The notes: a model not told the origin generated them from the letters alone. DNA of 45,013 nt from Candidatus Woesearchaeota archaeon (GCA_964360985.1 CAYHYK010000001.1:1-45013); one strand, 5' to 3'. Shown: positions 7,956 to 38,281, counted from the stretch's first letter. Numbers and translations are program-made.

Positions 7956-8585
7956 TTATTTATCGCTAACTTCTTTCTCTAAAGCATTTTTCTCTTCTTG
8001 TAATCTTCTCATTTCTTCTTCCCCTATTTCTTCCATAGCTTTCTCACTAACTAATTCAAGTACTCTTATTTCACAAAAAGCTAAAGGATATATCTTCTTA
8101 AGAGCAAAAGACATCCCTCTCTGAAGTTTATTAGCAATAATATCAGAGAATAATTCTTTAGTCGTTCTTATCTTCAAATACTCTGTCGCAAACTTTCTAG
8201 CCTCATTTCTCAAAGCATTTCTTATATTTCTAGAAACTTTTCTCCTAGTTATTAAAAAAGGTTTAACAATAAAAATAGCATCTCTACACTTAGTCTTAAA
8301 AGAATCTTCAACGTAATCTATTCCTCTTCTCATCGATCTTCTTATATACGATTGTGCAAGTGCAGCTCTAACAGGTGTAGCCTTAAGTTTTCCATCCTCA
8401 TTCTTTATTTTCATTTTTAACTCCAAATTCTTACCTCTTAAATTCTTCGTTAAATCTAATATTATTGCCCTGCCATCAAACTCTTCAACACTTGTTCCAT
8501 ACAAAGAAACTTTAGAAGAAGTTAAGGGAGTTTCAACTTCATGAAAACTCTTCTTCAGCCCTCGACTCTTTGGTTTTTGATCCAT
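7956..8585 (-). CDS. rps3ae: 30S ribosomal protein S3Ae (eS1)
   Basis: Characteristic eS1 sequence, e.g. 'FDGRAIILDLTKNLRGKNLELKMKI...IRRSMRRGIDYVEDSF...ALKKIYPL'. Confidence 0.9.
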   Translation of the reverse strand: MDQKPKSRGLKKSFHEVETPLTSSKVSLYGTSVEEFDGRAIILDLTKNLRGKNLELKMKIKNEDGKLKATPVRAALAQSYIRRSMRRGIDYVEDSFKTKCRDAIFIVKPFLITRRKVSRNIRNALRNEARKFATEYLKIRTTKELFSDIIANKLQRGMSFALKKIYPLAFCEIRVLELVSEKAMEEIGEEEMRRLQEEKNALEKEVSDK

Positions 8586-8586
8586 T

Positions 8587-8916
8587 TTACTTTGAAATCT
8601 TCTCTCCTATTTCTACTCTTCCTGATCTTATTGCTTTTTTAATATTATGCATTTTCTTACATGTCTTACACTTATATGTTACAGTAATTCTCTTGGTAAC
8701 CTTAGCCTTCATTTTCCAATCTTTAGGACCCTTTCTGCTTCTTCTTCCCAAATTACCAAATCCTCCTCGCAGTCCTCTCAACTTCTCTCTAGAACTAGAA
8801 CCTCTTGATAAAGGATGTGTAGCAGATCTTGCTCTTTGTTTAGCTGTATCTACTAAATGTGCAGTATGTTTTCTGCAATACGGACAATATCTCTTGGTTT
8901 CTTTAGGTAACTTCAT
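8587..8916 (-). CDS. rpl44e: 50S ribosomal protein L44e (eL42)
   Basis: 'KRYCPYCRKHTAH' and 'YKCKTCKK' zinc ribbon with basic composition. Lies directly upstream of S3Ae on the same strand. Confidence 0.9.
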   Translation of the reverse strand: MKLPKETKRYCPYCRKHTAHLVDTAKQRARSATHPLSRGSSSREKLRGLRGGFGNLGRRSRKGPKDWKMKAKVTKRITVTYKCKTCKKMHNIKKAIRSGRVEIGEKISK

Positions 8917-9002
8917 CTTATTGGTCTAAAAGCTAACCATTGATCGACCACCAATGGGTGTGCTATAAATATACTCCTAATTGACAGTTTTTAAACATTG
9001 CG

Positions 9003-9605
9003 TTAATGTTCTTTCCCAATAATCTCTGCTATTTTCTTGCTTCTAAAATATCCTTCATGAACTTCTAGTCCTTGCATTCTATACAAAGCCTCTAAATACT
9101 TTCTAACATAAAATATATTTTCTCCCTCTCCTCTCAACATAGCATCCATATCTGTCGATCTCTCAATCTTGGCATGAACCCCAAGAGCAAATACTCTTGC
9201 ATTATCTACATTGGAAACACTAGGTAAATCTTTAATTACACTTTCTATTCCATTTTGAGCCCCATCATAAAGCGCTGCTCTTAATTCTCCCATTCTATGA
9301 TCTCCGCGAGCAATATGACTCATTTCGTGAGCGAATGCCCCTCCTAAAATCTCAAAAAATTTAGGATTATAAATCAAATCTACAGGTAGACTCCCTTCCA
9401 TATAAGCAACACCATTATCATCTCCACAAACATGCAAGTCTGCCGTTCCATCTTGACTAAACCCCATGCTTAAGACTATTTCGCTATTTCTTATATCCTT
9501 GAAAGATCCATCTATTAAACCATGAAATATATGTTTTACTACAATAGGTGAATAAACTTCACCTGCAATTTCTCTTAAATCACTAAAATCCATTTCATTA
9601 TCCAT
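9003..9605 (-). CDS. Putative soluble zinc metalloprotease (HExxH)
   Basis: 'FAHEMSHIARGDH' has an HExxH plus downstream acidic/His pattern, as in M48/M56-type peptidases. ATG 9605 has TTTAAAAA (complement of 9627..9634) about 25 nt upstream; the track start is TTG. Confidence 0.45.
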   Translation of the reverse strand: MDNEMDFSDLREIAGEVYSPIVVKHIFHGLIDGSFKDIRNSEIVLSMGFSQDGTADLHVCGDDNGVAYMEGSLPVDLIYNPKFFEILGGAFAHEMSHIARGDHRMGELRAALYDGAQNGIESVIKDLPSVSNVDNARVFALGVHAKIERSTDMDAMLRGEGENIFYVRKYLEALYRMQGLEVHEGYFRSKKIAEIIGKEH

Positions 9606-9705
9606 ATATTTTCCTTGCAAAATCCATTTTTAAACCTTTGCTTCTGTCACTACTTCTCAATAACCAATAAGTAACTTCTATTCAATGTTTACCTAAACAG
9701 AAACC

Positions 9706-9713
9706 TTTAAAAT
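9706..9713 (+). promoter_or_regulatory. TATA box of the S15 gene (leaderless arrangement)
   Basis: TTTAAAAT is centred about 26 nt upstream of ATG 9735. The same spacing is seen for many genes in the window. Confidence 0.45.
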
Positions 9714-9734
9714 ACCCTTAATCTAAAATCAAAG

Positions 9735-10124
9735 ATGCCAAAAACAAAGAAAATAGAAGCAGAAGAAGATATTCAAGCCGATGCTCCTAAAGAAAAAACA
9801 ACAGAGAAATCTAGTTGGATAAAGATAAAACCTCAAGAACTATACATCATAGTATCAGATTTGGCAAAACAAGGGAATTCTCCCTCAAAGATAGGAATTA
9901 TCCTTAGAGACAAACACGCAGTACCTAAATCAAAACTTCTAGGGAAAAAGATAACATCTATATTAAAAAAAGAAAATATAACTTACATAAAAGATAAAGA
10001 TATAATAAACAAAAAAGTCCAGACTCTTAAAGATCATATAGGAAAAAACAAGTATGATAATTCTGCCAAGCGTTCTTTAGCAAAACAATTATGGCTTCTA
10101 CATAGTATCAATAAAAATCAATAA
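9735..10124 (+). CDS. rps15: 30S ribosomal protein S15 (uS15/S13e type)
   Basis: 'LAKQGNSPSKIGIILRDKHAVPKSK...GKKITSILKK' and C-terminal 'KDHIGKNKYDNSAKRSL' match archaeal S15. Confidence 0.85.
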   Translation: MPKTKKIEAEEDIQADAPKEKTTEKSSWIKIKPQELYIIVSDLAKQGNSPSKIGIILRDKHAVPKSKLLGKKITSILKKENITYIKDKDIINKKVQTLKDHIGKNKYDNSAKRSLAKQLWLLHSINKNQ

Positions 10125-10143
10125 ATTTCATAACACTTAGAGG

Positions 10144-11454
10144 ATGATAGAAAAAATAAAAAAAGCAATAGAATTGATTAAATCCACCTCTCTTCCTATA
10201 AAAGTTATAAGTCACTTCGACACAGATGGAATAACTTCTGCAGCCATTTTCTCAAGAGCATTACAAAGAATAGGTAAAAACTTCACACTTCAAATAATAA
10301 AGGGTCTTGAAGAAGACTTAATAAAGAATTTACCAGAAAACCACATGATAATCTTTCTTGATTTAGCATCAGGGAGTTTAAAATATATAAAAGAAAAATC
10401 AAACCCTTTTATAATATTCGACCATCACGAATTATCTCAAGAAATTCCTCCTAATGTATTCATGGTAAATCCTCTCTTAGAAGGTGAAGAGTCACTCTGT
10501 AGCGCAGCAATATGCTACCTATTCGCAAAAACACTATCCCCTCAAAACAAAGATCTTGCAAATTTAGCAGTAATAGGAATGGTAGGGGATAGTCATGATC
10601 AAAACATAGGAAAAAGATACGATGAAATAATAAAAGACGCTGATGCTTCAGTAAAAAAAGGATTAATGATATATCCTTCAACAAGACCTCTTGATAAAGC
10701 CTTGGAATATTCATCCTCTCCCTATATTCCAAACGTTACAGGCTCATACAAAGGAGTAATAGAACTACTAAGAGAAGCAAACATTCCAAAAATAAATGGT
10801 TCTTTTAAAGCCCTCTATGAATTAACTGATGAAGAGATGACTAACTTAATTACTTCAATAGTATTAAAAAACCCTGCAAAAATAAACACTGACAAATTAA
10901 TAGGCAATCTTTATCTCATAAAATCTCATAATCGCGTTGAAGATGCAAGGGAAATATCCGCACTTATAAATTCCGGAAGTAGAATGGGTCATCCATACAT
11001 TTCTCTTGGTTTCTGTTTAGGAAACAAAACAATGAAGTCAAAAGCAGAAAAAGTATACATAGAATATAAACAACAATTAGTATCTGCTCTTAAATATATT
11101 ACAGAAGCAGAAAAAATAACTGGAAACAATTACACAATAATAAACGCCAAAAACAATATCAGAGATACAATAATAGGTACAGTAGCTTCAATAATATCTC
11201 GTTCGCCTGTTTATACAGAAGGAACAATAATAATCGCTCTTGCATATAGCGAAAACAAAATAAAAGTATCAGCAAGAATTGCAGGAAGAGAAGGGCGTAA
11301 CGTACGTGAAGTCCTGGAAAAAGTAGTAGTTCCACTCGGAGGTGAAGTAGGAGGTCATCCAAACGCTGCAGGTTGCCTTATATCAAAAGATCATGAAAGC
11401 CAATTCATAGAAGAATTAAAAAAAGTCCTAGATATAGAACTTATAAAAGTATAA
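10144..11454 (+). CDS. DHH/DHHA1 phosphoesterase, archaeal RecJ/GAN (Cdc45-like)
   Basis: DHH motifs 'HFDTDGITSAA', 'FDHH' and 'GMVGDS', and the DHHA1 motif 'GGHPNAAG'. S15-RecJ adjacency is a common archaeal arrangement. Confidence 0.8.
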   Translation: MIEKIKKAIELIKSTSLPIKVISHFDTDGITSAAIFSRALQRIGKNFTLQIIKGLEEDLIKNLPENHMIIFLDLASGSLKYIKEKSNPFIIFDHHELSQEIPPNVFMVNPLLEGEESLCSAAICYLFAKTLSPQNKDLANLAVIGMVGDSHDQNIGKRYDEIIKDADASVKKGLMIYPSTRPLDKALEYSSSPYIPNVTGSYKGVIELLREANIPKINGSFKALYELTDEEMTNLITSIVLKNPAKINTDKLIGNLYLIKSHNRVEDAREISALINSGSRMGHPYISLGFCLGNKTMKSKAEKVYIEYKQQLVSALKYITEAEKITGNNYTIINAKNNIRDTIIGTVASIISRSPVYTEGTIIIALAYSENKIKVSARIAGREGRNVREVLEKVVVPLGGEVGGHPNAAGCLISKDHESQFIEELKKVLDIELIKV

Positions 11455-23220: not shown

Positions 23221-23312
23221 ATATAATAATTCATTTAATTGATTTTTACACCCTCTCCTTGAATTAACCCAGAACAATAAACCTAAAAACCCTTTTTATC
23301 TTCAAATGTTGT

Positions 23313-23386
23313 GCCCCTATAGTTCAGCCTGGATAGAATAATTCCTTGCGGAGGAGTTGACCTCAGTTCAAATCTGAGTAGGGGCG
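23313..23386 (+). tRNA. tRNA-Arg (anticodon GCG)
   Basis: Manual cloverleaf: acceptor GCCCCTA/TAGGGGC, anticodon stem ATTCC/GGAGT, loop TTGCGGA, T arm CTCAG-TTCAAAT-CTGAG, discriminator G. Confidence 0.9.
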
Positions 23387-23409
23387 TGTAACCTAAGGTT
23401 AATAATCTC
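23381..23409. repeat. Island repeat copy A: tRNA-Arg 3' end plus palindromic core
   Basis: GGGGCGTGTAACCTAAGGTTAATAATCTC. The core TAACCTAAGGTTA is palindromic. It recurs at 24371..24426 and 25479..25507. Confidence 0.7.
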
Positions 23410-23504
23410 ACTATATTAGAGATTTTTGTCGAGGAGAAGATTTTCAGGAGTTGGTTAAGTGCTCCCGCAGGAGCGTGTAACTGAACTATATTCAATGACT
23501 TGGA

Positions 23505-24221
23505 TTAAACATCCTTTATTAATTCATCAAAATTATATATTATTTTCTTATCTAAATCGTAATGTGAAGCATAAAAAGGAAACTCTTTAACCTGAGGTAG
23601 TATTTTTTTCTTCCATTGATAAATATCGGCCTTTAGTGGTGGCCCAGGATAGACTATGAGTCTAAAATTATCTTTCTTAACAAGCGTTTTAGGAAACTCC
23701 ACTTCTTTTTGTCGTATCACATGAGTTATCGCAATTTCTTCTATAATGAAGTTTATGTTAGCTTCGCTTTCTTTTCTGTCTTTAAGAGCTTCTAAAAGTA
23801 ATTTATGAAATTCCTTATCTTCTTTATCTAATCGTTTCAATCTCTCATAATAAAATTGAAATTGTGGTGAGTTAAGAACAATATAATCCCACGGTAAGAA
23901 ATGCATGGCTTGTGGAACATATTTTTTCTTCTTTAAAACAAGATTTCTAACAGAATTACTATGACTAAGCATCTGCCCATTTGTTTTCTTTCTCACCTCT
24001 AAAGCTGCTTCATCATTATTATAATAAAGTCCATTAGTGTAAAGAAAGATAACATCTAAACCAATCATCTTTATTTTTTCTTCAAATAACTCAAGAGCTT
24101 TGTAACAATGTTCAGCATTTTGAGCATTAGATAATCTGCTCATAGACAAAGGAAAGACAATATAACCATCACTTGGAATTTGATTAATATCATGAAGTGG
24201 AAGTGTTTGTTGTTTACTCAT
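23505..24221 (-). CDS. Hypothetical protein, tentatively cyclodipeptide-synthase-like (238 aa)
   Basis: ATG 24221 has TTTTAAAA (24244..24251) about 26 nt upstream. Weak colinear resemblance to CDPS blocks: 'FPLSMSRLS', 'HFLPWDYI...FHKLLLEAL', 'NFIIEEIA', 'LIVYPGPP'. Function is unverified. Confidence 0.5.
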   Translation of the reverse strand: MSKQQTLPLHDINQIPSDGYIVFPLSMSRLSNAQNAEHCYKALELFEEKIKMIGLDVIFLYTNGLYYNNDEAALEVRKKTNGQMLSHSNSVRNLVLKKKKYVPQAMHFLPWDYIVLNSPQFQFYYERLKRLDKEDKEFHKLLLEALKDRKESEANINFIIEEIAITHVIRQKEVEFPKTLVKKDNFRLIVYPGPPLKADIYQWKKKILPQVKEFPFYASHYDLDKKIIYNFDELIKDV

Positions 24222-24370
24222 ACTAAGCACAAGGTTACCTTACTTTTAAAAGTTGCCATATTCAGGGAGCACTTAACTGCCCATTTTTGCAAAGATTAAC
24301 TTTGACAATTTTTAAACCCTAACTTTTTTGATGGAAAAATCTCATCTTCAACAAAATGTCAATTGTTCGT

Positions 24371-24426
24371 GAGATTGTTAACCTAAGGTTAATTATCTCG
24401 TGGGGGCGTGTTACCTAAGGTTAATA
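24371..24426. repeat. Island repeat copies B and C (29-bp palindrome, then a tRNA-3'-end-like copy)
   Basis: B is GAGATTGTTAACCTAAGGTTAATTATCTC (24371..24399). C is GGGGCGTGTTACCTAAGGTTAATA (24403..24426), nearly identical to copy A at the tRNA end. Confidence 0.7.
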
Positions 24427-24501
24427 TTATGTTAAAAGTAAAAACAATTGTTTTTATATAAAAACAATATATTTATAAGGATAAAAAACAATAACATTTT
24501 T

Positions 24502-25053
24502 ATGCAAGAATTAAAATTCATCAAGTTTGTAGAATTTTTTTTGGTCAATCCGTATAAAGAGGTCTATATTAGAGAGTTGGCAAGAAAACTAAAAATAAGC
24601 CCTTTTGCAACAAAGAAGTATGCAGATATATTGGTAAAAGAGAACTTAATCTTAGAAGAAAGAAAAGCAAATTTAAGATATCTAAAGGCTAATGTAAAAA
24701 ATTTGTTCTATAAACACATGAAGATTGCGTACAATATGGGGCAATTATTGAAATCTGGGTTAATTGACTTTTTAAAAAATAATCTGGCGAATTTGACATC
24801 GATTATCTTGTTTGGTTCACTTGCCAAGGGAGAAGATACTAATGAAAGCGATATAGATATCCTTATTATAGGAAAACAAAAACATTTGAGTCTGAAAGAA
24901 TTTGAAGATAAATTAGATAAAGATGTGACTCTTCATTTTTTTAGCTGGAGTGAATGGAACGATAAAGCTAAAGAAGATCATCCATTTTATTATGAAATAA
25001 TAAGTTATGGTCTGCCTTTATATGGCGAACTGCCTTTAACAAAATGGAAATAA
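24502..25053 (+). CDS. Minimal nucleotidyltransferase (MNT) with N-terminal wHTH, antitoxin-type
   Basis: 'ILFGSLAKGEDTNESDIDILIIG' fits GS-x-G-x-SD-x-D. ATG 24502 has TTTATAAG (24472..24479) about 26 nt upstream; the track start is TTG. Confidence 0.8.
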   Translation: MQELKFIKFVEFFLVNPYKEVYIRELARKLKISPFATKKYADILVKENLILEERKANLRYLKANVKNLFYKHMKIAYNMGQLLKSGLIDFLKNNLANLTSIILFGSLAKGEDTNESDIDILIIGKQKHLSLKEFEDKLDKDVTLHFFSWSEWNDKAKEDHPFYYEIISYGLPLYGELPLTKWK

Positions 25054-25469
25054 GAAATACTGAAGATTGTTTTAAATTTAGGTTATTAAGAAAAATCAAA
25101 CCCGATAAAGACAAATCAAAAAAATCCTTAGAAATAGCTGAAAGCAGAATCCTAAGGGCGAAAGAAACACTAAAAATTAATATCTTTGATTTTGTTATTC
25201 TAGAGTCTTATATGTCGATGTTTCATGCAGCAAGAGCATTATTATATAAAGATGGAGTACAAGAAAAAAGCCATTATGCAATCTCTGTTTATTTAAAAGA
25301 GAAATATTCCGATAAAATTCCAATTCCAGTATTAAACTTTTTGGAGATTCATCGAATTGAAAGACACGAAGCAATGTATGGCTTAGAATATAAGCCAGAA
25401 AAGAAAGACGCAGAACTATCATTGAAAGATGCAGAAATTTTTATAAAAGAAATCAAGAAGATTCTCTGA
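25044..25469 (+). CDS. HEPN domain protein (toxin partner of MNT)
   Basis: 'SYMSMFHAARALLYKDGVQEKSHYA' and 'RIERHEAMYG' fit the HEPN helical pattern. It overlaps the MNT gene by 10 nt. Confidence 0.7.
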   Translation: MEIRNTEDCFKFRLLRKIKPDKDKSKKSLEIAESRILRAKETLKINIFDFVILESYMSMFHAARALLYKDGVQEKSHYAISVYLKEKYSDKIPIPVLNFLEIHRIERHEAMYGLEYKPEKKDAELSLKDAEIFIKEIKKIL

Positions 25470-25478
25470 TTTTAGCGG

Positions 25479-25507
25479 GAGAACATTAACCTAAAGTTAA
25501 TTATCTC
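25479..25507. repeat. Island repeat copy D (29-bp palindrome)
   Basis: GAGAACATTAACCTAAAGTTAATTATCTC, followed by GTAGGAG (copy B is followed by GTGGGGG). Confidence 0.7.
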
Positions 25508-25589
25508 GTAGGAGACTTTAAAACTAAACCTCTCCAAAGTTACACCCCTCGGACCAAAAATATTTAAACTAGTGCCTCTTAAATAAATT

Positions 25590-26663
25590 ATGTCAAAAAG
25601 AGAAGATAAATTTACTGTTGTAGAACTATTTGCTGGAGCTGGTGGACTAGCTCTAGGCTTAGAAAAAGCAGGATTAAAGAACGTTTTTCTTAATGAAATT
25701 GATAAAAATTGTGTAGCTACTTTGAGAAAAAACAGACCTAATTGGGATATTACACATAAAGATATAAAAGATGTTGACTTTAAAGAGATACAAGCAGACG
25801 TTTTAACTGGCGGCTTTCCTTGTCAGTCTTTTAGTCACGCTGGAAAAAGATTAGGGTTTGAAGATACAAGAGGTACTCTTTTTTTTGAGTTTGCTAGAGC
25901 AGTTAAGGAAATTCAACCTAAAATATTTATAGCGGAAAATGTCGCTGGATTGGTTTCACATGATAAGGGAAGAACCTTGCAAACAATGTTAAGAATATTG
26001 AGAGAAGATTTAGACAGCTATGATGTTCAATATAAAATTCTTAATGCAGTTAATTTTTCAGTTCCTCAAAAAAGGCAGAGAATTTTAATCGTTGGGACTA
26101 AAAAGGGAATCAATTTTCAATTTCCAAAAGATCACGACAAAATAATAAACTTAAGAGAAGCTTTACAAGGAGTTCCTAAGTCCGAAGGAATGCAATATTC
26201 TCTTAAAAGAAAAAAAGTTTTAGACTTGGTTCCTCCTGGAGGTAGCTGGGTAAATTTACCAAAGGGTATTCAAAAAGAATTTATGGGTAAGAGTTTTTTT
26301 AGTGGTGGAGGAAAGAGAGGAATGGCGAGACGTATTTCTTGGAACGAACCCTGTCTAACATTAACTACTTCTCCTTCTCAAAAGCAAACTGAAAGATGCC
26401 ACCCAGAAGAAACAAGACCCTTTACAATTAGAGAATATGCAAGAATACAAACCTTTCCAGATGATTGGGAATTTACTGGGAGCGTATCTTCCCAATATAA
26501 ACAAATAGGTAATGCTGTTCCAGTAAAACTTGCAGAAGAAATTGGAAAACAAATAATCAAAGCCTTATCAAACACAAATGAAGATATTATTGAAGAGCCA
26601 ATCCAAACAAACCTACAAGCTTTTTCATATCCTCTTCAAGAATCATCACTGATTTTCCCCTAA
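25590..26663 (+). CDS. DNA (cytosine-5)-methyltransferase
   Basis: C5-MTase motifs in order: I 'FAGAGG', IV 'GGFPCQSFS', VI 'ENV', VIII 'QKRQR', X 'GNAVPV'. Confidence 0.92.
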   Translation: MSKREDKFTVVELFAGAGGLALGLEKAGLKNVFLNEIDKNCVATLRKNRPNWDITHKDIKDVDFKEIQADVLTGGFPCQSFSHAGKRLGFEDTRGTLFFEFARAVKEIQPKIFIAENVAGLVSHDKGRTLQTMLRILREDLDSYDVQYKILNAVNFSVPQKRQRILIVGTKKGINFQFPKDHDKIINLREALQGVPKSEGMQYSLKRKKVLDLVPPGGSWVNLPKGIQKEFMGKSFFSGGGKRGMARRISWNEPCLTLTTSPSQKQTERCHPEETRPFTIREYARIQTFPDDWEFTGSVSSQYKQIGNAVPVKLAEEIGKQIIKALSNTNEDIIEEPIQTNLQAFSYPLQESSLIFP

Positions 26664-27294
26664 AGTAATCGTTTATCGCTCTTGGAAGAGCTAACCAGGT
26701 TTTTTTCAAAGCATCTTTATCTCTAGTAACTAATTCATAGACCTTAGAACCATAAATAACTCTTATTCTATCACTCGCTTTCCTTCCTTTTTTAATCCAA
26801 ACCTTGTCGCCAGAGGAATTATTTTTTGAAATTATAAACGCCCAGTATGCTTTAGCTGTTCTATTCTGTTGAATTGCTTTTTCCAATTTATCTCTAACTT
26901 TATCTAACGAATCAGAATTTACAGTATTGAATTTATTTTTCAATTCTATAAATATGGACTTATCTTCTTTCATCAAGTCAACTTTGGAATCATCTCCAGT
27001 TCCTAAGTCCATCCATCCCTTAACATTACCTAATAATTTTTGATGAAACTCTCCAATTCTGTTATTTAGAGTCTTATCCGCCTGCCTCATTTCTTCATTT
27101 TTTAACCAAGTATCAAAGTTTAATCTTTTGTTTATCAAATCGAATATAGTCTTAAATGGATCTAATCCGTTGCTTCTTAAATCATCGATAGATAAATTCT
27201 CTCTTGCTTCGGCATATCCTTTACAAACATGTTCTACACACTTCAAAAAATCTTTATCTGAAACAAAATTCACATATTTGTTTTTTCCAAACAT
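26587..27294 (-). CDS. Type II restriction endonuclease candidate (possibly Eco47II/Sau96I-like)
   Basis: Convergent partner of the MTase. 'VDLMKEDKSIFIELKNK' gives a D...E-x-K core. ATG 27294 has a TATA-like box about 25 nt upstream. Family assignment is from memory only. Confidence 0.55.
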   Translation of the reverse strand: MFGKNKYVNFVSDKDFLKCVEHVCKGYAEARENLSIDDLRSNGLDPFKTIFDLINKRLNFDTWLKNEEMRQADKTLNNRIGEFHQKLLGNVKGWMDLGTGDDSKVDLMKEDKSIFIELKNKFNTVNSDSLDKVRDKLEKAIQQNRTAKAYWAFIISKNNSSGDKVWIKKGRKASDRIRVIYGSKVYELVTRDKDALKKTWLALPRAINDYFRGKSVMILEEDMKKLVGLFGLALQ

Positions 27295-27351
27295 AGTTCT
27301 ATTACTCTGCACTCATTTTTAACTATTGTTATTGATCAAATCAATCACCAA

Positions 27352-27714
27352 CTATTCCTCTTTCTTCCTCAATATCTTATCCATTTTTCTTCCCTGTGCC
27401 AATTCATCAATTAATTTATCAAGATAACGAATATTTCTCATAAGTTTATCTTTAATATCCTCTATGCGATACCCGCAAATTACTCCTTTTATTAATGAAG
27501 CGTTGGGATTAATTTTAGGTGCTTCTTTAAAAAAGGTTTCAAGATCACTTTTTTTATTCAGTTGCCCCTGTAAACCTTTCTTATCATAACCAGTTAGCCA
27601 AAAAATAACTTCATCAACCTCTCCTTTTGTTCGTCCCTTTCTTTCTGCCTTTTGAATATACATTGGATAAACACTAGCAAATATTATAGCGTAAACCTTT
27701 TCTTTTTGCCTCAT
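27352..27714 (-). CDS. DUF2200-family protein
   Basis: '[32 protein letters not shown]...[27 protein letters not shown]...[23 protein letters not shown]' matches my recollection of DUF2200. Confidence 0.55.
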
Positions 27715-27828
27715 CACAAGAATAATATCTCATTTTTATTTATAAATATATTGAAAGACCTTTACCTACAATATATTATAATACCTAAAAAAAGAAAAAT
27801 TTATAAGTAAGGAAATTCTTACTTTATC

Positions 27829-28062
27829 ATGGAAACTAAAATAATTAAAGTAACTCATAAGGGTCAGATTTCCTTACCTGTGGGAATAAGGGATTCGTTA
27901 AAAATTAGACAAGGAGATGAATTGTTTATTACAAGAAACGAGGATGCTATTGTAATAAAGAAAGTTAAGAAAGAAGATTTCGGTTACTTATTAAAGCATT
28001 CTGAAAAAGTTGCAAAAAAGCTTTGGGATAATAAAGAAGATGAGGTTTGGGATAATGTATAG
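27829..28062 (+). CDS. mazE: AbrB/MazE-type antitoxin
   Basis: 'THKGQISLPVGIRDSLKIRQGDEL' is an AbrB-fold motif. Its stop overlaps the MazF start. TTTATAAG (27800..27807) lies about 25 nt upstream. Confidence 0.7.
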   Translation: METKIIKVTHKGQISLPVGIRDSLKIRQGDELFITRNEDAIVIKKVKKEDFGYLLKHSEKVAKKLWDNKEDEVWDNV

Positions 28063-28387
28063 ACAAGGTGAGATTGTTATTGTTCCTTTTCCTTTTTCAG
28101 ATCTAAGTGCTATTAAACAAAGACCTGTCCTTGTTCTATCAAAAAATATGGATAATGAAAAGACAGAGGATATAATAACTTGCGGAATTACTTCAAACAT
28201 TAAGAATTCAAATTATTCTGTCTTAATAGAAAATAAAAATTTAATTGAAGGAAAAATTCCTAAGCCAAGTAGAATTAAGATTGATAAGTTGTTTACAATA
28301 AACAAAGAGATTGTTAAGAAAAAAGTTGGAAGAGTGGATAAAGAAACTTTTGAAAAAATGAAATATGAATTTATTAAATTAGTTTAA
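28055..28387 (+). CDS. mazF: MazF/PemK-family endoribonuclease toxin
   Basis: 'MYRQGEIVIVPFPFSDLSAIKQRPVLVLS' is the PemK N-terminal signature. ATG 28055 overlaps the antitoxin stop; the track start at 28010 is upstream and non-ATG. Confidence 0.8.
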   Translation: MYRQGEIVIVPFPFSDLSAIKQRPVLVLSKNMDNEKTEDIITCGITSNIKNSNYSVLIENKNLIEGKIPKPSRIKIDKLFTINKEIVKKKVGRVDKETFEKMKYEFIKLV

Positions 28388-28399
28388 TTATAGATTAAT

Positions 28400-32192: not shown

Positions 32193-34679
32193 TTATTCAT
32201 CTGCAGCTTCATCTCTAACACCTGCAATTGTTACATAAAATTGAGCCTCGTTATCAGGCAAATTAGGAGAGTCAATTAGTTTAGCAACTCGACTTCCCTG
32301 TTTTCCTCTTCTTAAATATATTCGATATGTTGAGTTATGAACAACAAATCCGTTAGCCACATAATTCTGATTTTTAGGAACAGAAAAGTCATATAAAGTT
32401 TGCCCATTATTATCCTTAGTAGTTATCTCTCTAATTTTTTCAAAAATAATATCTCCATCAAGTAACTTTCCAATAAAATCTACTTTTTGTTTTATTTGTC
32501 TATCTTTTATTTGAACATTCATTAATGCCTTAAATGATGTCTCGAGTTCTTTTCTACTTACCCATTTATACTCTTTAGATCGAGGTCTTATTAGTTTAGA
32601 GTATCCTAAGTTACATTGCTCGAACAACATCTTCAGTTCATTTCTCCTTACAGGCATTAATTGATAACTGTAACTCTCGCCATGTTTCTCAATTCTTTCA
32701 ATTAAAGTTTTTTGTTTATCAGATGCACTAAAACCTATTTGTAGATAATCTCTAACATCTTTATCAATAATTCTCAGAACATTAACTTCCTTACCTGCCA
32801 CATTAAATTTAATAGTAGACCTAATTCCCAGTCTCAACAAGAACAGCTGTAAATATCTTAAAACTTTCTCATTTTTTTGAACTACTTTTATATAAGGTCT
32901 TTTCTTATCTATATGTCCCTCTGCATCAAAAAATCCTTTGATAAAACCTCTAACAACATTTACCTTAGACTTTCCGATCTCACTTAAAATATCTGGAAAT
33001 ATGCATTCAAATAAATCTCTCAGTTCTTTAGAGTTTATATTGAGAGTATAACAATTTTTATTGCTCATCTTAGTTATTTTTCCTTCTACATTAAATGTTT
33101 CCTTAAACAAGTTACTATAAACCTCTAAAACTTCAATTCTAGCATCTCTAAACCTTAATCCTCTCTCTTCAAAATTTCCATCACCCCAAAAATATCCTAA
33201 TATTTGTCCTAGTCTATAATCCAAAAATTCAGGAATTACTAAATCCCTATGTTTATTATTGACAACTGCAACCATCTCTAAAACCTGTTCTCCTCCATAA
33301 TAGTTTTGAAGATTATTCAAAACATCCCAGGAAGTTGGGTATTCTTGATTTACCACTCTCCTAAATTGTCTTGGAGTTATTCCTATTTGCTTGCATATCT
33401 CCTTTCGAGTAATTTTTTCATTAATTAATTTTTCAGTCAATACTTTTGCACTTTCCTTGGCAAGTTTTCCTACCTTCCTAAGCTTAAATTGAGGAAGTCT
33501 TCTCTCCTCTCCTTCAATATCAATTTTTCCAGCTTGAGCCACAAATTCTCCAGCATTAAGATTTCTAGCTTCTTTTTCAATTATATCAAAATTATTTATA
33601 CTGAAAAATCTATGAAGACCAGAGCAATTTATCTGACAATTCGTTTTTATATTATATATTTTATCGACATTCGGATTGATAAAAAGATTTTCAGAATTAG
33701 AATTTTCAAATTTTGCTTTCTCCAAATTTCCAGACAAAACATTTTCTTGTTTCATATCTCTAATTTCAATAATACTTCCATCAGCCAATTGAATTAAAGA
33801 GTCTCCAGTAAGACACATATGTCCCACGATATGCCCCCCGACGGGAGTAGTGGGATCTCCAAACATCATTCCAGGGTTAGCCATAACTTGATTAGTTACT
33901 AATATCGCTAAGTTATGTTGTTCAGCAAGTCTCATTAAATCGTGTAAATATCTATTCAACTTTTGCTGTCTATCTGCTAGTTGTCCTCTTCCAGCAAATT
34001 CAGCTCGAAAGTGAGCAGTCAATGAATCAATAACAATTAATTTAATGGGCTCTCCTTCTTTTATCATTTCCTTAATTTTATCAATTAATAATATCTGGTG
34101 ATCTGAATTAAATGCTCTAGCCACTAAAATATTTTTGAGTACTTTTTCAGGGTTAGCTCCTATCCCTTCAGCTATCTGTTTTATTCTTTCAGGTCTAAAA
34201 GTCCCTTCTGTATCAATATAAACTGATTTTCCATTAACTCCTCCACTTTCCTTAGGCAATTGAGCGTTTACCGACAAAGTTAAAGCACATTGAGTTTTTC
34301 CGCTTCCAAAACCTCCATATATTTCAGTCATTGATTTAGTCTCAACACCCTTTCCTCCTAGTAAATTATTCAAATTAACACTTCCTGTAGAAATATACCC
34401 AACATCCTCTCTTTTTTTAGCAAATTCAGTTCCATCCATGAAACCCAGTTTCATCATTCCTCTCGCAGCCTGTATTGCTTTTCTGGCGACAGCCTCTCCA
34501 ACACCAGCCATATCACTTAAAGAACTAGGACTCATTACAGCTAAGCCCATTAAATCATAAACTCCTGCTGCCTCTAGTTTAGCAGCAATCCCCGGACCTA
34601 TTCCAGGTACATCTGTTATCTTTGCCTCGCCCTCGCTCGGCTTATCCTCTTCCTCTTCTTTGCCTTCTTTTTTTGTCAT
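32193..34679 (-). CDS. radA: DNA repair and recombination protein RadA, interrupted by an intein
   Basis: N-terminal HhH 'VPGIGPGIAAKLEAAG', Walker A 'GGFGSGKTQ', Walker B 'LIVIDS' and the 'GGHIVGHM' block. After 494 extra residues comes 'STYRIYLRRGK'. Confidence 0.92.
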   Translation of the reverse strand: MTKKEGKEEEEDKPSEGEAKITDVPGIGPGIAAKLEAAGVYDLMGLAVMSPSSLSDMAGVGEAVARKAIQAARGMMKLGFMDGTEFAKKREDVGYISTGSVNLNNLLGGKGVETKSMTEIYGGFGSGKTQCALTLSVNAQLPKESGGVNGKSVYIDTEGTFRPERIKQIAEGIGANPEKVLKNILVARAFNSDHQILLIDKIKEMIKEGEPIKLIVIDSLTAHFRAEFAGRGQLADRQQKLNRYLHDLMRLAEQHNLAILVTNQVMANPGMMFGDPTTPVGGHIVGHMCLTGDSLIQLADGSIIEIRDMKQENVLSGNLEKAKFENSNSENLFINPNVDKIYNIKTNCQINCSGLHRFFSINNFDIIEKEARNLNAGEFVAQAGKIDIEGEERRLPQFKLRKVGKLAKESAKVLTEKLINEKITRKEICKQIGITPRQFRRVVNQEYPTSWDVLNNLQNYYGGEQVLEMVAVVNNKHRDLVIPEFLDYRLGQILGYFWGDGNFEERGLRFRDARIEVLEVYSNLFKETFNVEGKITKMSNKNCYTLNINSKELRDLFECIFPDILSEIGKSKVNVVRGFIKGFFDAEGHIDKKRPYIKVVQKNEKVLRYLQLFLLRLGIRSTIKFNVAGKEVNVLRIIDKDVRDYLQIGFSASDKQKTLIERIEKHGESYSYQLMPVRRNELKMLFEQCNLGYSKLIRPRSKEYKWVSRKELETSFKALMNVQIKDRQIKQKVDFIGKLLDGDIIFEKIREITTKDNNGQTLYDFSVPKNQNYVANGFVVHNSTYRIYLRRGKQGSRVAKLIDSPNLPDNEAQFYVTIAGVRDEAADE
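32334..33815 (-). mobile_element. Intein (494 aa) with a LAGLIDADG homing endonuclease domain inside RadA
   Basis: Starts 'CLTGDSLIQLADG' (Cys codon 33813..33815). Ends 'ANGFVVHN' followed by Ser (Asn codon 32334..32336). LAGLIDADG blocks are 'LGYFWGDGNF' and 'FIKGFFDAEGH'. Confidence 0.85.
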
Positions 34680-34745
34680 GAAATTCTATAAAAGTCTTGC
34701 TTTATAAAAATATCGCGTTTTTTAGCACTTTCATTACAAACCTTA

Positions 34746-35912
34746 TCAAAATTTTCGCTTGTATCTTAATTGCCTTCCATACAATTCTCTAGAACTCTCA
34801 TCCATAATATTTTCTAAATCTCCAACAGTTTCATGTTGAACAATAAAAGAATCATGAAGGGGTAGAATAGGAAAACCTTTAACTAAACAACCTTTTTCAA
34901 GAACACTTCTAGCATATGTACTTTCTTCTCTGTTTATTAGCATATGCACAGGAAACTCACTCTCTCTTAAACTATCAAGTGCTTCAAAAAACTCTGGAAA
35001 AATTTCCACAAAGTCCATATACCTTGCAGAGTGACCGATGTTTCTAAGCTTATAATTTAAATTTCTTCCTCTGCTTTCTCCAGGGCTATATATTAAAGTA
35101 TAAATTAAACTTTTTAATGTATCTCTATCAACTTCATGCCATCCCTCTCTATTTAAATTACAACTAGAATTAAGTTCAGATGAAAAATAATTGTAAGGAT
35201 CTGATCTATCTAATATATCTGCTATTGATCCATTTCCTTTATTCTCTAATGCGATATTTAAGAATTGTAAGGTAGCTGCAGAAATATCTATTTCTGCTGT
35301 ATAAGCCCCATTGATAGTTAACATTGGCCTTAAAACAGAATTAATTCTTTGATAAGAAGTTTCAGGATGAAAAAATCTACCTCCTGCCAAAGGTTTAGCT
35401 ACTAAAAAAGGCACGCTATGAAAGTTAGCTAATTGAATTCTGTCCTTCACCGCTATTCCTGATTGAGGCATTTTAAGTTCCACTCTTATTGAAGAATAAA
35501 ATTTATTCAATTCTCCTAAAAATTTTTTGATTTTATTAATTTCTTCAGATTCATAACCACATTCAACCATACTACTTTCATTCACACATTTATTATGCCA
35601 TATTTTCTCAAGAGGTCTTAGTTCAATGTCTCCCAGTCTTTCCATAAAGTTAGTATTCGATTTGAAACTATATCCTTTGCCAGCTTTTTTTACAACACAC
35701 CATTCATCTATAAATTGAGTACTAGCAAATTTTCTAGGAATTTTGCGCATTCTAAAACCTCCAAATTGAGTTAGATGAAATAAAACTCTTTTTTCCTCTG
35801 CTCTATTTATTCCTAATTCATCATATTTTAGACTGTAAGTTTCTGGAATAATATAAGAATTTTTCCTAAACAATGGCAATATAGGGATTTTATTGTAAAT
35901 ATTCTTTTTCAT
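34746..35912 (-). CDS. Stand-alone minimal polymerase-like protein with T7-RNAP/family-A palm and finger motifs (388 aa)
   Basis: Ordered motifs: 'GGRFFHPETSYQRINSVLRPMLT', A 'EIDISAATLQ', B 'RDTLKSLIYTLIYS', 'YMDFVEIFPEFFEAL' and C 'LPLHDSFIV'. It has its own TATA-like box (complement of 35934..35941) about 25 nt upstream. Confidence 0.5.
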   Translation of the reverse strand: MKKNIYNKIPILPLFRKNSYIIPETYSLKYDELGINRAEEKRVLFHLTQFGGFRMRKIPRKFASTQFIDEWCVVKKAGKGYSFKSNTNFMERLGDIELRPLEKIWHNKCVNESSMVECGYESEEINKIKKFLGELNKFYSSIRVELKMPQSGIAVKDRIQLANFHSVPFLVAKPLAGGRFFHPETSYQRINSVLRPMLTINGAYTAEIDISAATLQFLNIALENKGNGSIADILDRSDPYNYFSSELNSSCNLNREGWHEVDRDTLKSLIYTLIYSPGESRGRNLNYKLRNIGHSARYMDFVEIFPEFFEALDSLRESEFPVHMLINREESTYARSVLEKGCLVKGFPILPLHDSFIVQHETVGDLENIMDESSRELYGRQLRYKRKF

Positions 35913-35963
35913 AAAACTTTAACAAATTAAACGTTTTTAAACTAATATGTACTAAAATAATTT

Positions 35964-36896
35964 TTATTTGCTCTCTAACTCTTTAATTAATAATTGTGGA
36001 TCAAGTTCAGATATATCATCTATACTAAGTTCATTTGTATTAAAAACAGCATTATTTTTCATAGTTCCACTAAAAAGTTTCTCCTCTCCAAGCATCTCAA
36101 TTTTTTTAGCAGAAAACAAGTCAGCAGAAAATATCTGGTCATATAATCCAAGTTTTTTTATTTGCTCTCCAAATAAAACACTCCTTATAGTCTCACTCCC
36201 ATCATCCAAAACTATACTCAAAATAGCTTTCTTTATACTCTTTGTCTCCCCATGATTAGTGCACTTCCCTTCAACTACTTTTTTTCCACACTCAGAACAA
36301 GCATCAAAATACCTCGGATCAAATATCTGTACTATAACTGCTCTGGTACTAAAGCTCTCTCCAGGCTTAACATCCTTCAATTTTCTACTGCTAAAAACTT
36401 TGCCTTCAATAACATTTTTTATTTCCTCTTTACTTTTCTTCAAATCTGAAAAACTACTCAAATGAACCTCTCCATTTCTCATACTTCCATTTGAAACCTC
36501 TATTATATCTCCCGACTTTATTTTTCCTTCTTCTACCAAAGATATATGATGATTGTCCCACAAAACTACTCGTATATTAGAACTATCATCCGCCATTCTA
36601 AGACTACAAACCTTTCCACTTTTTCCATTCTTACTGTATTCATTCACCGCAAAAAGTTCTATTATTTTTCCTATAAAATTGACTTTTCTCATTCCCGCTA
36701 CGAGTTCCTTAATCTTTAATCTCTCCTGATCAAAATTAATTCCAAGTTCAGCAGCAACTATTTGTGCAGCTCCTTCTTTGCTTACAAGTCCAGAAAGTTT
36801 CGCTCTTTTTGCTTCAATTTTCCTCTCTATTTCCTCTACATTCACTCCGCTAGATTCAGAAATCCTCGAAATAAGTTGTTGATAATTATCACCCAT
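35964..36896 (-). CDS. Replication protein A (ssDNA-binding, OB folds plus zinc ribbon)
   Basis: 'VSKEGAAQIVAAELGI', OB-fold repeats and 'CSECGKKVVEGKCTNHG'. ATG 36896 has a TATA box about 25 nt upstream. The track's longer N-terminus would overlap the EF-1beta start. Confidence 0.8.
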   Translation of the reverse strand: MGDNYQQLISRISESSGVNVEEIERKIEAKRAKLSGLVSKEGAAQIVAAELGINFDQERLKIKELVAGMRKVNFIGKIIELFAVNEYSKNGKSGKVCSLRMADDSSNIRVVLWDNHHISLVEEGKIKSGDIIEVSNGSMRNGEVHLSSFSDLKKSKEEIKNVIEGKVFSSRKLKDVKPGESFSTRAVIVQIFDPRYFDACSECGKKVVEGKCTNHGETKSIKKAILSIVLDDGSETIRSVLFGEQIKKLGLYDQIFSADLFSAKKIEMLGEEKLFSGTMKNNAVFNTNELSIDDISELDPQLLIKELESK

Positions 36897-36991
36897 CTTT
36901 TTTAATAATAATCTTCCTTTAAAAGCATTATTGTCAAATTCTTCCTTATCAAAAACAACAAGCTTAAAAACCATCCATTCCAAGAAAAACA

Positions 36992-37264
36992 ATGGGAATT
37001 GTAGCAGTAATAGTAAAAATCCTTCCAGATTCACCTCAGGCAGATTTAAACCATATAGAAACAGAAGCTAGAAAAGCATTAGAGGAACACGGAGCAAAAA
37101 ACATCTCATTCGTTCAAGAGCCTATAGCCTTCGGTCTAAAATCAATAAAAATAAAATTCGCCTGGCCTGAAGAAAAAAACACAGACATTATAGACAATTC
37201 TCTAGGAAGTATAAAGCATGTCTCTTCAGCCAAAATAGAAGATTATAGACGAGCATTCGGATAA
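36992..37264 (+). CDS. ef1b: Elongation factor aEF-1 beta
   Basis: 90-aa protein: 'VAVIVKILPDSPQADL...IAFGLKSIKIKFAWPEE...VSSAKIEDYRRA' matches the archaeal EF-1beta pattern. Confidence 0.85.
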   Translation: MGIVAVIVKILPDSPQADLNHIETEARKALEEHGAKNISFVQEPIAFGLKSIKIKFAWPEEKNTDIIDNSLGSIKHVSSAKIEDYRRAFG

Positions 37265-37267
37265 AAT

Positions 37268-37612
37268 CTATTTATTACCGTAGTAACACTTCCAGTGTCC
37301 TCTATGGAAATCTCTGTTTCTTGGATGTAATGCACTTCTAGATTCATGAATTTCAGCAATTGGATTCTTTGCTAAAGCCTCATCCACTAAAACCTTCCTT
37401 CTCTGACTAGAAACTTCATCTAAGTGTGCCATAAGTCCAAAATCATAAGCCAAACCTACAGCTACGTCTTCTTCAAATTCCCTTCTATAATCCTTATTCT
37501 CCTCCGAACTTTCTTTTAAAAAGTCATAATGAGCTCTAACTCTATCAGCAGCATCCTTTCCAATAGAATATTTCTCTAAAATACTACCCACATACTCACT
37601 ATCGCTTACCAT
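37268..37612 (-). CDS. Hypothetical protein (114 aa)
   Basis: ATG ORF with no recognisable motif. Confidence 0.4.
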   Translation of the reverse strand: MVSDSEYVGSILEKYSIGKDAADRVRAHYDFLKESSEENKDYRREFEEDVAVGLAYDFGLMAHLDEVSSQRRKVLVDEALAKNPIAEIHESRSALHPRNRDFHRGHWKCYYGNK

Positions 37613-37663
37613 TCAAAAATTAACAATCAAAGTTTATATAAACCTTTTTCTCCTGAAAAATAT

Positions 37664-38281
37664 ATGGCATTAACACCTTCCCAAATAAAAGAATTAAAAA
37701 TACAACTTTTATCTCAAATAAAAGACCTTCCCCCTCAGAGAAGAAAAGAAGCAGAAGAACAAATAGAATCTCTTTCTCCAGAATCTTTGGAAGCTATGCT
37801 TGAAGAACAACAGTCCAGAAATCAAAAGAACGTTTTTAGAATGATTGTTAATTCAGAAATACCTTCAGTTAAAATATCAGAAAATTCTAAAGCCTTAGCA
37901 GTATTATCAACAAAATCCCTCTCAAAAGGACACTCAATAATAATTCCAAAAATTTCTGTAGAAGATGAAGAGTCAATACCCAAAGAAGCCCATAAATTAT
38001 CTGAAGAATTATCAAAGAAATTAATACATTCTTTAGGAGCAAAATCCACATCCATAATTCCTGAAAAGATATTTGGAGAAATGATAATAAATGTTATTCC
38101 GATTTATGAAAAAGAGGTAAATCTAAAATCAAAAAGAGAAGACATTTCAATAGAAGATCTGGAAAAATTAAAAACCTCTATAAATATTGAAAAAATAGAT
38201 AAAAAACCTCAGTTAATTATCCAAGAAAAGAAAATAAACGAAGAACATCAACCTCTAAAATTAAAAAGAAGAATACCATAA
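37664..38281 (+). CDS. HIT-fold protein lacking the histidine triad
   Basis: 'VFRMIVNSEIPSVKISENSKALAVLSTKSLSKGHSIIIPK' matches the HIT N-terminal half. 'GEMIINVIPIY' occupies the HxHxHxx position with no His. Confidence 0.5.
   Translation: MALTPSQIKELKIQLLSQIKDLPPQRRKEAEEQIESLSPESLEAMLEEQQSRNQKNVFRMIVNSEIPSVKISENSKALAVLSTKSLSKGHSIIIPKISVEDEESIPKEAHKLSEELSKKLIHSLGAKSTSIIPEKIFGEMIINVIPIYEKEVNLKSKREDISIEDLEKLKTSINIEKIDKKPQLIIQEKKINEEHQPLKLKRRIP

Follow-up and report, generated by a model that had tools for sequence, protein, structure and literature searches.

The DNA analysed here, a stretch of 45,013 nucleotides (nt) from a Candidatus Woesearchaeota archaeon (GCA_964360985.1 CAYHYK010000001.1:1-45013; hereafter the window), carries an intact tRNA-Arg(GCG) gene at one boundary of a genomic island, and palindromic repeats related to the 3' end of this gene recur at boundaries within the island. 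On balance, we favor the reading that these repeats are attachment-site remnants of repeated site-specific integration at tRNA-Arg by a recombinase supplied in trans, because the tRNA gene is intact, direct copies of its 3' half stand at later boundaries, the cargo between them varies, and alignments between genomes break off at the borders of the tRNA-like block. The repeats belong to a conserved element of about 165 nt, termed E, or to its shortest form, termed S. An earlier note on this DNA had described them as dif/lox-like palindromes that delimit gene modules.

The palindromes as parts of a conserved element

When the whole 45 kb was searched for the core TAACCTAAGGTTAAT with up to two mismatches, sites were found at 23389, 24379, 24411 and 25487 only, and a fuzzy search concurred. 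Every site matches in part on both strands, and the six strand matches, all between 23389 and 25501, compare with 0.28 expected by chance and with 0 of 100 shuffles that got to six, confirming the four core copies that the note had claimed. As had also been described, copy A (23381-23409) runs straight on from the 3' end of tRNA-Arg, and copy C (24403-24426) repeats that end and its flank (GGGGCGTG plus a hairpin); tRNA-Arg 3' end and copy A form with copy C a direct repeat of 27 nt (23378-23404 and 24400-24426, 93% identical). Copies B (24371-24399) and D (25479-25507) are indeed 29-nt imperfect palindromes, and the 37 nt surrounding them are 84% identical. A further, degenerate copy is present as GGAGCGTGTAAC, at 23470-23481, one base from where the note had placed it.

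The proposed architecture of the palindromes did not hold up. The supposed 7-bp spacer, CCTAAGG, is not an asymmetric centre between 11-base pair (bp) arms but a palindrome in its own right, and B therefore comprises 14-nt arms, with two mismatches, on either side of one central A. The two sites B and D are repeated directly, not in pdif-like alternating orientation, and their sole asymmetry comes from the flanking ATCTCGTGGGGGC. The lox/dif reading fails on both counts, the symmetry of the centre and the direct repetition. Nor are the palindromes free-standing units, since they correspond to the mutated T-arm of the tRNA-half-like block S (about 50 nt), which lies within the 165-nt E, and conservation ends not at the palindrome centre, but just past GTGGGGGCRT.

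Exact matches to TAACCTAARGTTAAWWATCTC were sought in 185,579 species genomes, metagenome contigs and viral contigs. Fourteen genome loci were recovered, 14/14 in DPANN archaea (labelled Pacearchaeota, Woesearchaeota or Nanoarchaeota), together with 92 metagenome contigs. The comparison set comprised about 110 sequences (loci L001-L110), about 100 of them with E or S, and some contigs were sampled twice. Alignment of the flanks revealed about 165 nt conserved to the left of the palindrome, with conservation ending just to its right, and this is element E. The full-length E of the window (24248-24409, + strand) consists of a left G-box (GGGAGCACTTAAC, 24268-24280), a TCAACAAAA box, palindrome B and a right G-box (GTGGGGGCGT, 24400-24409), the first G-box being the 3' end of tRNA-Arg itself (GTAGGGGCG); it matched an E profile, built from 10 other DPANN loci plus the window copy, with an nhmmer E-value of 1e-39. 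Full-length E accounted for 84 matches including duplicate samplings of contigs (64 distinct sequences). Forms truncated at the 5' side were also present, the shortest being S (model positions ~110-167), which usually equals the right end of E. At site D, S spans 25461-25515 (to 25517 in the annotation; + strand; E model positions 111-165; nhmmer E-value 5e-11) and contains TTAGCGGGAGAAC, palindrome D and, as a degenerate G-box, GTAGGAGAC. Cassettes end on the right in ..ATCTCGTGGGGGCRT.

The right edge of E is sharp. In 98 distinct copies, conservation ends immediately past GTGGGGGCRT, and three kinds of sequence lie beyond it: unique sequence; a conserved "class 1" trailer (TAATCCTTAGGATTAAATCTCCTACATAAACCGAATAAC..), also found behind the genuine tRNA-Arg of L110; or a hairpin with an inverted partial E, as at copies A and C of the window and behind the tRNA-Arg of L048/L053. 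At copy C, the hairpin (GTTACCTAAGGTTAATA, 24410-24426, + strand) stands directly 3' of the G-box, at the start of the second cassette, and is called a "class 2" flank. At copy A, the hairpin (23389-23409) forms the outer terminus of an inverted and shortened module like E (GGGAGCACTTAAC..TCGACAAAA..GTGAGATTATTAACCTTAGGTTA, 23389-23468, - strand), which nhmmer aligned to E model positions 92-149 on the minus strand and which belongs to the tRNA-Arg trailer. Accordingly, 23389-23411 and 24369-24391 form an inverted repeat, I8, that is 91% complementary. The trailer also includes an imperfect palindrome of inverted and direct G-box (GTTAAGTGCTCCC-GC-AGGAGCGTGTAAC, 23454-23482), which takes in the degenerate core copy and is likewise found downstream of tRNA-Arg in L110 and L048.

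About two dozen contigs begin or stop within ~130 nt of E (e.g., L034, L041, L050, L057, L059, L062, L072, L088, L095), and assemblies of DPANN metagenomes seem to break frequently at E. E was rejected as a coding sequence, the median longest stop-free stretch being ~25 codons. It was also rejected as a tRNA, a split-tRNA half or a known RNA: ARAGORN and Rfam found none at E, the T-arm is destroyed and a 5' half is missing. The Rfam search (gathering score for L004-L017; E-values up to 5 for the window region) returned only true tRNAs and no family for E.

Resemblance of S to the 3' half of tRNA-Arg

The tRNA-Arg gene of the window (anticodon GCG; 23312-23387, + strand) was called by ARAGORN and scored 56.8 bits with the Rfam tRNA model. 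The S block, about 50 nt of the form TTAGCGGGAGAACC-TTAACCTAAGGTTAA-TTATCTC-GTGGGGGCRT (consensus TTAGCGGGAGAACCTTAACCTAAGGTTAATTATCTCGTGGGGGCGT), aligns to this gene from position 38 through its end. The tRNA-Arg(GCG) of L110, an 832-kb Pacearchaeota contig, ends in ..GCGGACTCTGTAACCGAGGTTCAAATCCTCGTGGGGGCG, and the S consensus matched the 3' part of tRNA-Arg(GCG) from L110, L099 and L048 with z-scores of 6-8, a score equalled by 0 of 500 shuffles. Other Arg-type or Arg-like 3' ends gave z-scores of 5.2 (tRNA-Arg(CCT) of L077) and 6.8 (a 90-nt tRNA of L018 that ARAGORN assigned to Lys), the tRNA-Ala of L032 matched weakly (z 3.1), and six non-Arg tRNAs (Gln, Ile, Cys, Met, Leu, Gly) scored at background. 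A copy intermediate between tRNA and S was found in L087 (TAACCTAAGGTTCAAATCCTCGTGGGGGCGT). Judged by these alignments, S is a diverged 3' half of tRNA-Arg(GCG), from anticodon loop to 3' end. Since S aligns to this half and the L087 copy is intermediate, the supposed lox-like palindrome is, by the same sequence comparison, the mutated variable-loop and T-arm region, and the GGGGCG remarked on in the note is the 3' strand of the acceptor stem.

In the window, L081, L099 and L048/L053, a tRNA-Arg(GCG) gene lies upstream of E on the same strand. The tRNA of L048 (7012-7096) and L053 (8805-8889) is 85 nt long and was reported by ARAGORN as "tRNA-??? (gcgg)"; it resembles a tRNA-Arg(GCG) whose anticodon is followed by a short intron, and its 3' flank matches the A-type trailer of the window. 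A second hairpin family, TAATCCTTAGGATTA followed by AGTAATCGTGGGGGCGT, was seen at L013 811-845, L074 2606, L018 10792, L082 2749 and elsewhere, in the same role as TTAACCTAAGGTTAA and also behind genuine tRNA-Arg genes, so that the tRNA-end mimic comes in two variants or more.

The earlier comparison of copies A and C to an attL/attR pair stands in part. Like att sites, these repeats are descended from a tRNA 3' end, here that of tRNA-Arg. Copy A, on the other hand, may be native flank and not attL, because the stretch that begins with copy A and runs to 23482 matches a trailer module present behind the tRNA-Arg of another genome (L048/L053).

Homology breaks, cassettes and the island

Where non-identical loci were compared, 114 of 300 ends of homology fell within E ± 60 nt, which makes up 5.4% of the sequence, ~7-fold more than expected. 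Within the E model, these ends concentrate in three intervals, positions 110-119 at the anticodon-loop edge of S, 130-150 at the hairpin and 150-179 at the G-box, and on the alignment these are the edges of the tRNA-like block. Integrases are said, in work attributed to Williams in 2002, to cross over classically at two places in tRNA genes, the same as these edges.

Island content differs between related genomes, with breakpoints at the att-like repeats. The second cassette of the window (24434-25469, + strand) encodes MNT (24502-25053; Pfam NTP_transf_2/Polbeta) and HEPN (25044-25469). Its interval 24434-25467 is 79.5% identical to L013 892-1925, and homology stops at the repeats. The MazEF segment (27791-28390) is 80% identical to L013 2039-2638; MNT-HEPN and MazEF are adjacent in L013, whereas in the window they are separated by site D, Dcm/Eco47II and DUF2200. 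L013 was recovered from the same aquifer and has related hairpin and G-box motifs between its genes. A perfect 16-bp palindrome just upstream of MNT-HEPN (AAAAACAATTGTTTTT, 24440-24455), kept at ~897-912 of L013, is probably the operator of the MNT-HEPN operon itself and distinct from the tRNA-derived hairpin.

Other loci show comparable exchanges. An AbiEi-AbiEii cassette together with E is common to L035/L081, L029/L095 and L102, with three different right flanks from the G-box on. In L043, from the same well as the window, a HEPN gene 91% identical to that of the window is followed by a variant site D', a gene of 101 amino acids (aa) and an intein-less radA that is 75% identical, so that the cassette is far more similar than the core gene. 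Homology of the window to both L043 and L003 stops at S (site D). L003 matches the window at 99.6% identity as far as the stop codon of HEPN and resembles L043 from there on, while the HEPN of L043 is only 91% identical; L003 is thus probably an assembly chimera, or a recombinant, of window-like and L043-like sequences joined at the repeat. For this reason it was set aside as a clean strain variant, and we relied on L043 in its place.

Same-strand runs of one or more genes followed by E occur in L095, L034, L082, L087 and L094; gene orientation is mixed overall. In L095 the order is E, two genes, AbiE, an E fragment, AbiE, E, two genes, E, radA and, farther on, RPA-like and HIT genes, and the E-bounded cassettes thereby adjoin the neighbourhood found at 32193-38281 of the window. 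Several cassette runs lie between tRNA-Arg and radA, as in the window. The families recurring near E are MNT (20 loci), AbiEii (11), AbiEi-like (9) and RadA (8), as well as HEPN and TrmB. These results support the cassette idea of the note, in that the repeats coincide with the boundaries of cassettes found in other contexts elsewhere. The claim that repeats bracket modules is true of the first two modules of the window; it does not extend to the restriction-modification genes or to MazEF (27791, 28390), whose boundaries carry no repeats.

The first cassette holds a single gene (23505-24221, - strand) for a protein of 238 aa. The note had called it an orphan, but at least 199 homologues, 52-80% identical, place it in a conserved Pacearchaeota family. 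In a search of its AlphaFold model (mean predicted confidence, pLDDT, 88) with Foldseek, the top 44 matches were all cyclodipeptide synthases, at E-values of ~1e-6, template-modelling scores (TM) of 0.5-0.57 and sequence identities of 9-19%. Because the predicted fold resembles these enzymes, which use aminoacyl-tRNAs, the protein is best taken as cargo and not as a recombinase; the latter role was also rejected on the grounds that the family is widespread and never beside E elsewhere. Genomic contexts of the family vary. The gene adjoins tRNA-Arg in both the window and L110, is inverted between the two, and in the window lies between the inverted short E-like module (23389-23468) and E. Such an inverted pair would allow inversion, and could account for the flip relative to L110.

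The remaining island cargo of the window (25590-28387) is without flanking repeats. By Pfam, with gene calls in L001, it comprises a Dcm methylase (25590-26663, + strand), an Eco47II endonuclease (26587-27312, - strand), DUF2200 (27352-27717, - strand) and MazE/PemK (27829-28387, + strand). As called, the Dcm and Eco47II open reading frames (ORFs) converge with an overlap of ~75 nt (26587-26663), and the real stop of the endonuclease or end of the methylase may differ. On the far side of the island lies radA (32193-34679, - strand), a conserved chromosomal gene interrupted by an intein (domains Intein_splicing and LAGLIDADG_3); the intein is absent at that place from the radA of a co-occurring relative (L043 880-1199/L003 2776-2982), 75% identical to that of the window. 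The window has a G+C content of ~31%, carries further archaeal housekeeping genes (SRP54, ribosomal protein S3Ae, eIF2-alpha), and is also represented in contigs from Hainich groundwater well H51. In L048, the 4.4 kb from tRNA-Arg to E encode a kinase-like protein, a deaminase-methyltransferase fusion and a phosphatase, with no integrase; the fusion (8580-10814, + strand; 744 aa, cytidine-deaminase-like plus methyltransferase domain), beside the kinase-like protein, may be a defence or nucleic-acid-editing module.

Proposed integration at tRNA-Arg and competing explanations

In the scheme that we favor, cassettes would be inserted successively by site-specific recombination between a cassette-borne E or S and either the tRNA-Arg 3' end or an E or S copy left there earlier, so that integrative elements would accumulate in tandem at a tRNA gene. 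The enzyme, most plausibly a tyrosine recombinase, would act in trans. The 15-bp perfect hairpin is likelier to be the binding site of a dimeric protein than a crossover spacer. Since no integrase recurs near E, this mechanism is one that we infer. As the note had stated, the window itself encodes no integrase: the 30 of its ORFs that were scanned gave no Phage_integrase or Resolvase match in Pfam. An Xer-like tyrosine recombinase of 278 aa is encoded on one contig, sampled twice (L011 5439-6272, - strand; identical at L084 8943-9776, + strand), at a distance of about 5 kb from a copy of E; of the two Phage_integrase representatives it is the one that was identified, the best E-value among the two matching members being 3e-46, and it is an obvious first candidate. 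The involvement of XerA proposed in the note found no support. A linked integrase, resolvase or HUH transposase was rejected, there being only isolated Pfam matches among 293 ORF-cluster representatives from all loci and none in a motif scan.

Among elements that target tRNA genes, SSV1 integrates in a tRNA-Arg gene. Genomic islands linked to tRNA genes carry partial tRNAs left by repeated integration (PMC4383910; bioRxiv 10.1101/2020.12.28.424599), and in the tycheposons of Prochlorococcus new arrivals push older ones inward, leaving partial tRNAs behind (bioRxiv 10.1101/2020.12.28.424599). The arrays described here resemble such Islander-type islands and tycheposons in having an intact tRNA at one end and direct copies of its 3' part at later boundaries, in the displacement of older cargo by successive insertions, in the predominance of defence and toxin-antitoxin cargo, and in the occurrence of integrase-less remnants. 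They differ in that the units are 1-2 kb long and none has an integrase, and in that the tRNA-like block is palindromic, embedded in a 165-nt DPANN element, and also found far from tRNA genes. Unusual, besides the small integrase-less units and the occurrence away from tRNA genes, is this conversion of a tRNA-like block to a conserved palindromic form inside an element shared across DPANN lineages. Acinetobacter pdif modules, which are Xer-dependent, are similar in that short palindromic sites bracket small modules, often of toxin-antitoxin genes, in varied contexts. Sites of the dif and pdif type span about 28 bp, with 11-bp arms on either side of an asymmetric centre of 6-8 bp; in pdif the two arms differ, the centre has 6 bp, and the sites alternate in orientation, unlike the symmetric centres, direct copies and tRNA-derived setting found here.

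Several observations weigh against integration at tRNA-Arg. Cassette units of 1-2 kb without an integrase are not like ordinary integrative elements, and among 293 representatives of ORF clusters from all loci Pfam detected two Phage_integrase proteins and one small resolvase (L062), none adjoining E. Neither circular contigs nor excision junctions were found among the ~110 sequences, and IMG/VR viral contigs had 0 matches to two patterns, a result that also led us to reject a mobile element carrying the site. E occurs beside EF-1alpha- and aIF-2-like ORFs (named by eye from their N-termini) with no tRNA within the stored locus, and its orientation is not coupled to that of flanking genes (left neighbour + 32 times, - 24 times). 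Derivation from a tRNA does not account for the left 110 nt of E and the G-box that they contain. The exact crossover point is not fixed, because direct repeats can run past the G-box into the class 1 trailer. The invariance of the palindrome is partly a matter of selection, since the loci were retrieved with it, and metagenome contigs, L003 probably among them, can be chimeric at repeats.

The strongest competitor, though we think it unlikely, is that E spreads by itself as a repeat of the miniature inverted-repeat transposable element (MITE) or repetitive extragenic palindromic (REP) type, and that shuffling is a by-product of homologous recombination between E copies (165 nt, ~80% alike). 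Like such repeats, E is short, non-coding, multi-copy and confined to one lineage, it promotes rearrangement and, with about two dozen contigs ending in or near it, it breaks assemblies; its solitary occurrence by housekeeping genes in either orientation, the lack of a linked recombinase, and the inverted E'/E pair around a gene flipped relative to L110 would also be explained. However, neither terminal inverted repeats nor a visible target duplication accompanies E, its single sharp end mimics a tRNA 3' end and its 5' truncations fall at fixed points, so that its spread would still need a precise mechanism, and directional, same-strand runs anchored at tRNA-Arg would not be expected from random insertion.

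It is improbable that E is a functional RNA or regulatory DNA, either a promoter-operator with a TATA-like CGATAAAA box ~25 nt upstream of the hairpin or a tRNA-half-like decoy for neighbouring tRNA-directed toxins (HEPN, AbiEii, MazF). The CGTCGATAAA box is conserved at a fixed distance from the hairpin, E lies near MNT-HEPN at 20 loci and near AbiE at 11, and a palindrome would suit a dimeric DNA-binding protein. Against this, no Rfam family was detected for E at the thresholds used, and a conserved RNA structure was rejected because RNAalifold recovered only the invariant local 12-bp hairpin, with 0 of 12 pairs covarying. The absence of an orientation bias relative to neighbouring genes led us to reject a promoter or terminator, and the breaks of homology between genomes at E would be left unexplained.

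Slightly less credible still are hairpin-ended, non-autonomous elements that move as single-stranded DNA by means of an HUH (IS200/IS605-type) transposase, inserting 3' of GGGGGCGT and ending in the same sequence, which would yield head-to-tail runs. A perfect sub-terminal hairpin ~17 nt from the sharp right end, another hairpin directly behind the left junction, and apparent insertion directly 3' of a fixed sequence without duplication fit this picture. However, a crude regular-expression scan of six-frame translations of 644 kb of E-bearing loci gave no Y1-transposase-like motif, E sites fold weakly as single strands (z = -1.4 to -2.0), and a block homologous along its whole length to half a tRNA is what one would sooner expect of an integrase att site.

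A true integron-type array has the least to recommend it. An attC site has inverted core sites, RYYYAAC ... GTTRRRY, spans 57-141 nt and folds into an imperfect hairpin. E, at 165 nt, exceeds the usual range, has variable bases past the junction, no RYYYAAC/GTTRRRY pair at its ends (GTTRRRY is not conserved) and only the local 12-bp hairpin, and it is conserved in sequence across genera and derived from a tRNA; no IntI integrase was found in the window or the loci, there is no attI, and the array starts at a tRNA gene. The likeness lies in runs, seen in some loci, of short cassettes, each ending in a site on the same strand, in toxin-antitoxin and restriction-modification cargo and in the absence of a recombinase from the array, as in the integron cassette arrays and integrase-less attC clusters reported in Archaea (PMC9668308), but the cassettes here have their own promoters, up to two genes and either orientation, and it is highly improbable that E is an attC whose IntI is encoded elsewhere. 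The possibility that E had already been described as an archaeal attC was likewise rejected, its motif strings being absent from the supplementary text of PMC9668308 in the possibly incomplete form available.

Returning to integration at tRNA-Arg, a broader and rather doubtful proposal is that DPANN archaea of the Pacearchaeota/Woesearchaeota type possess an integron-like cassette system of independent origin, in which E/S sites derived from the tRNA-Arg 3' half, with the tRNA-Arg gene as primary site, would serve a recombinase encoded elsewhere, and this enzyme would insert promoter-bearing cassettes of 1-2 kb, accumulate them in stacks, invert them and exchange them between genera. The genomes of DPANN archaea are very small; to our knowledge, few mobile elements are recognised in these archaea, and little is understood of how they acquire and swap defence genes. 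An easily searched boundary marker of ~165 nt would let cassettes and hot spots be mapped in thousands of fragmentary genomes and would explain why assemblies break at these places, and E/S defines a DNA substrate with which to identify the responsible recombinase. If integrase-less cassettes are indeed moved by a recombinase acting in trans, they would constitute a second, independently evolved cassette platform beside integrons, built from a fragment of a tRNA.

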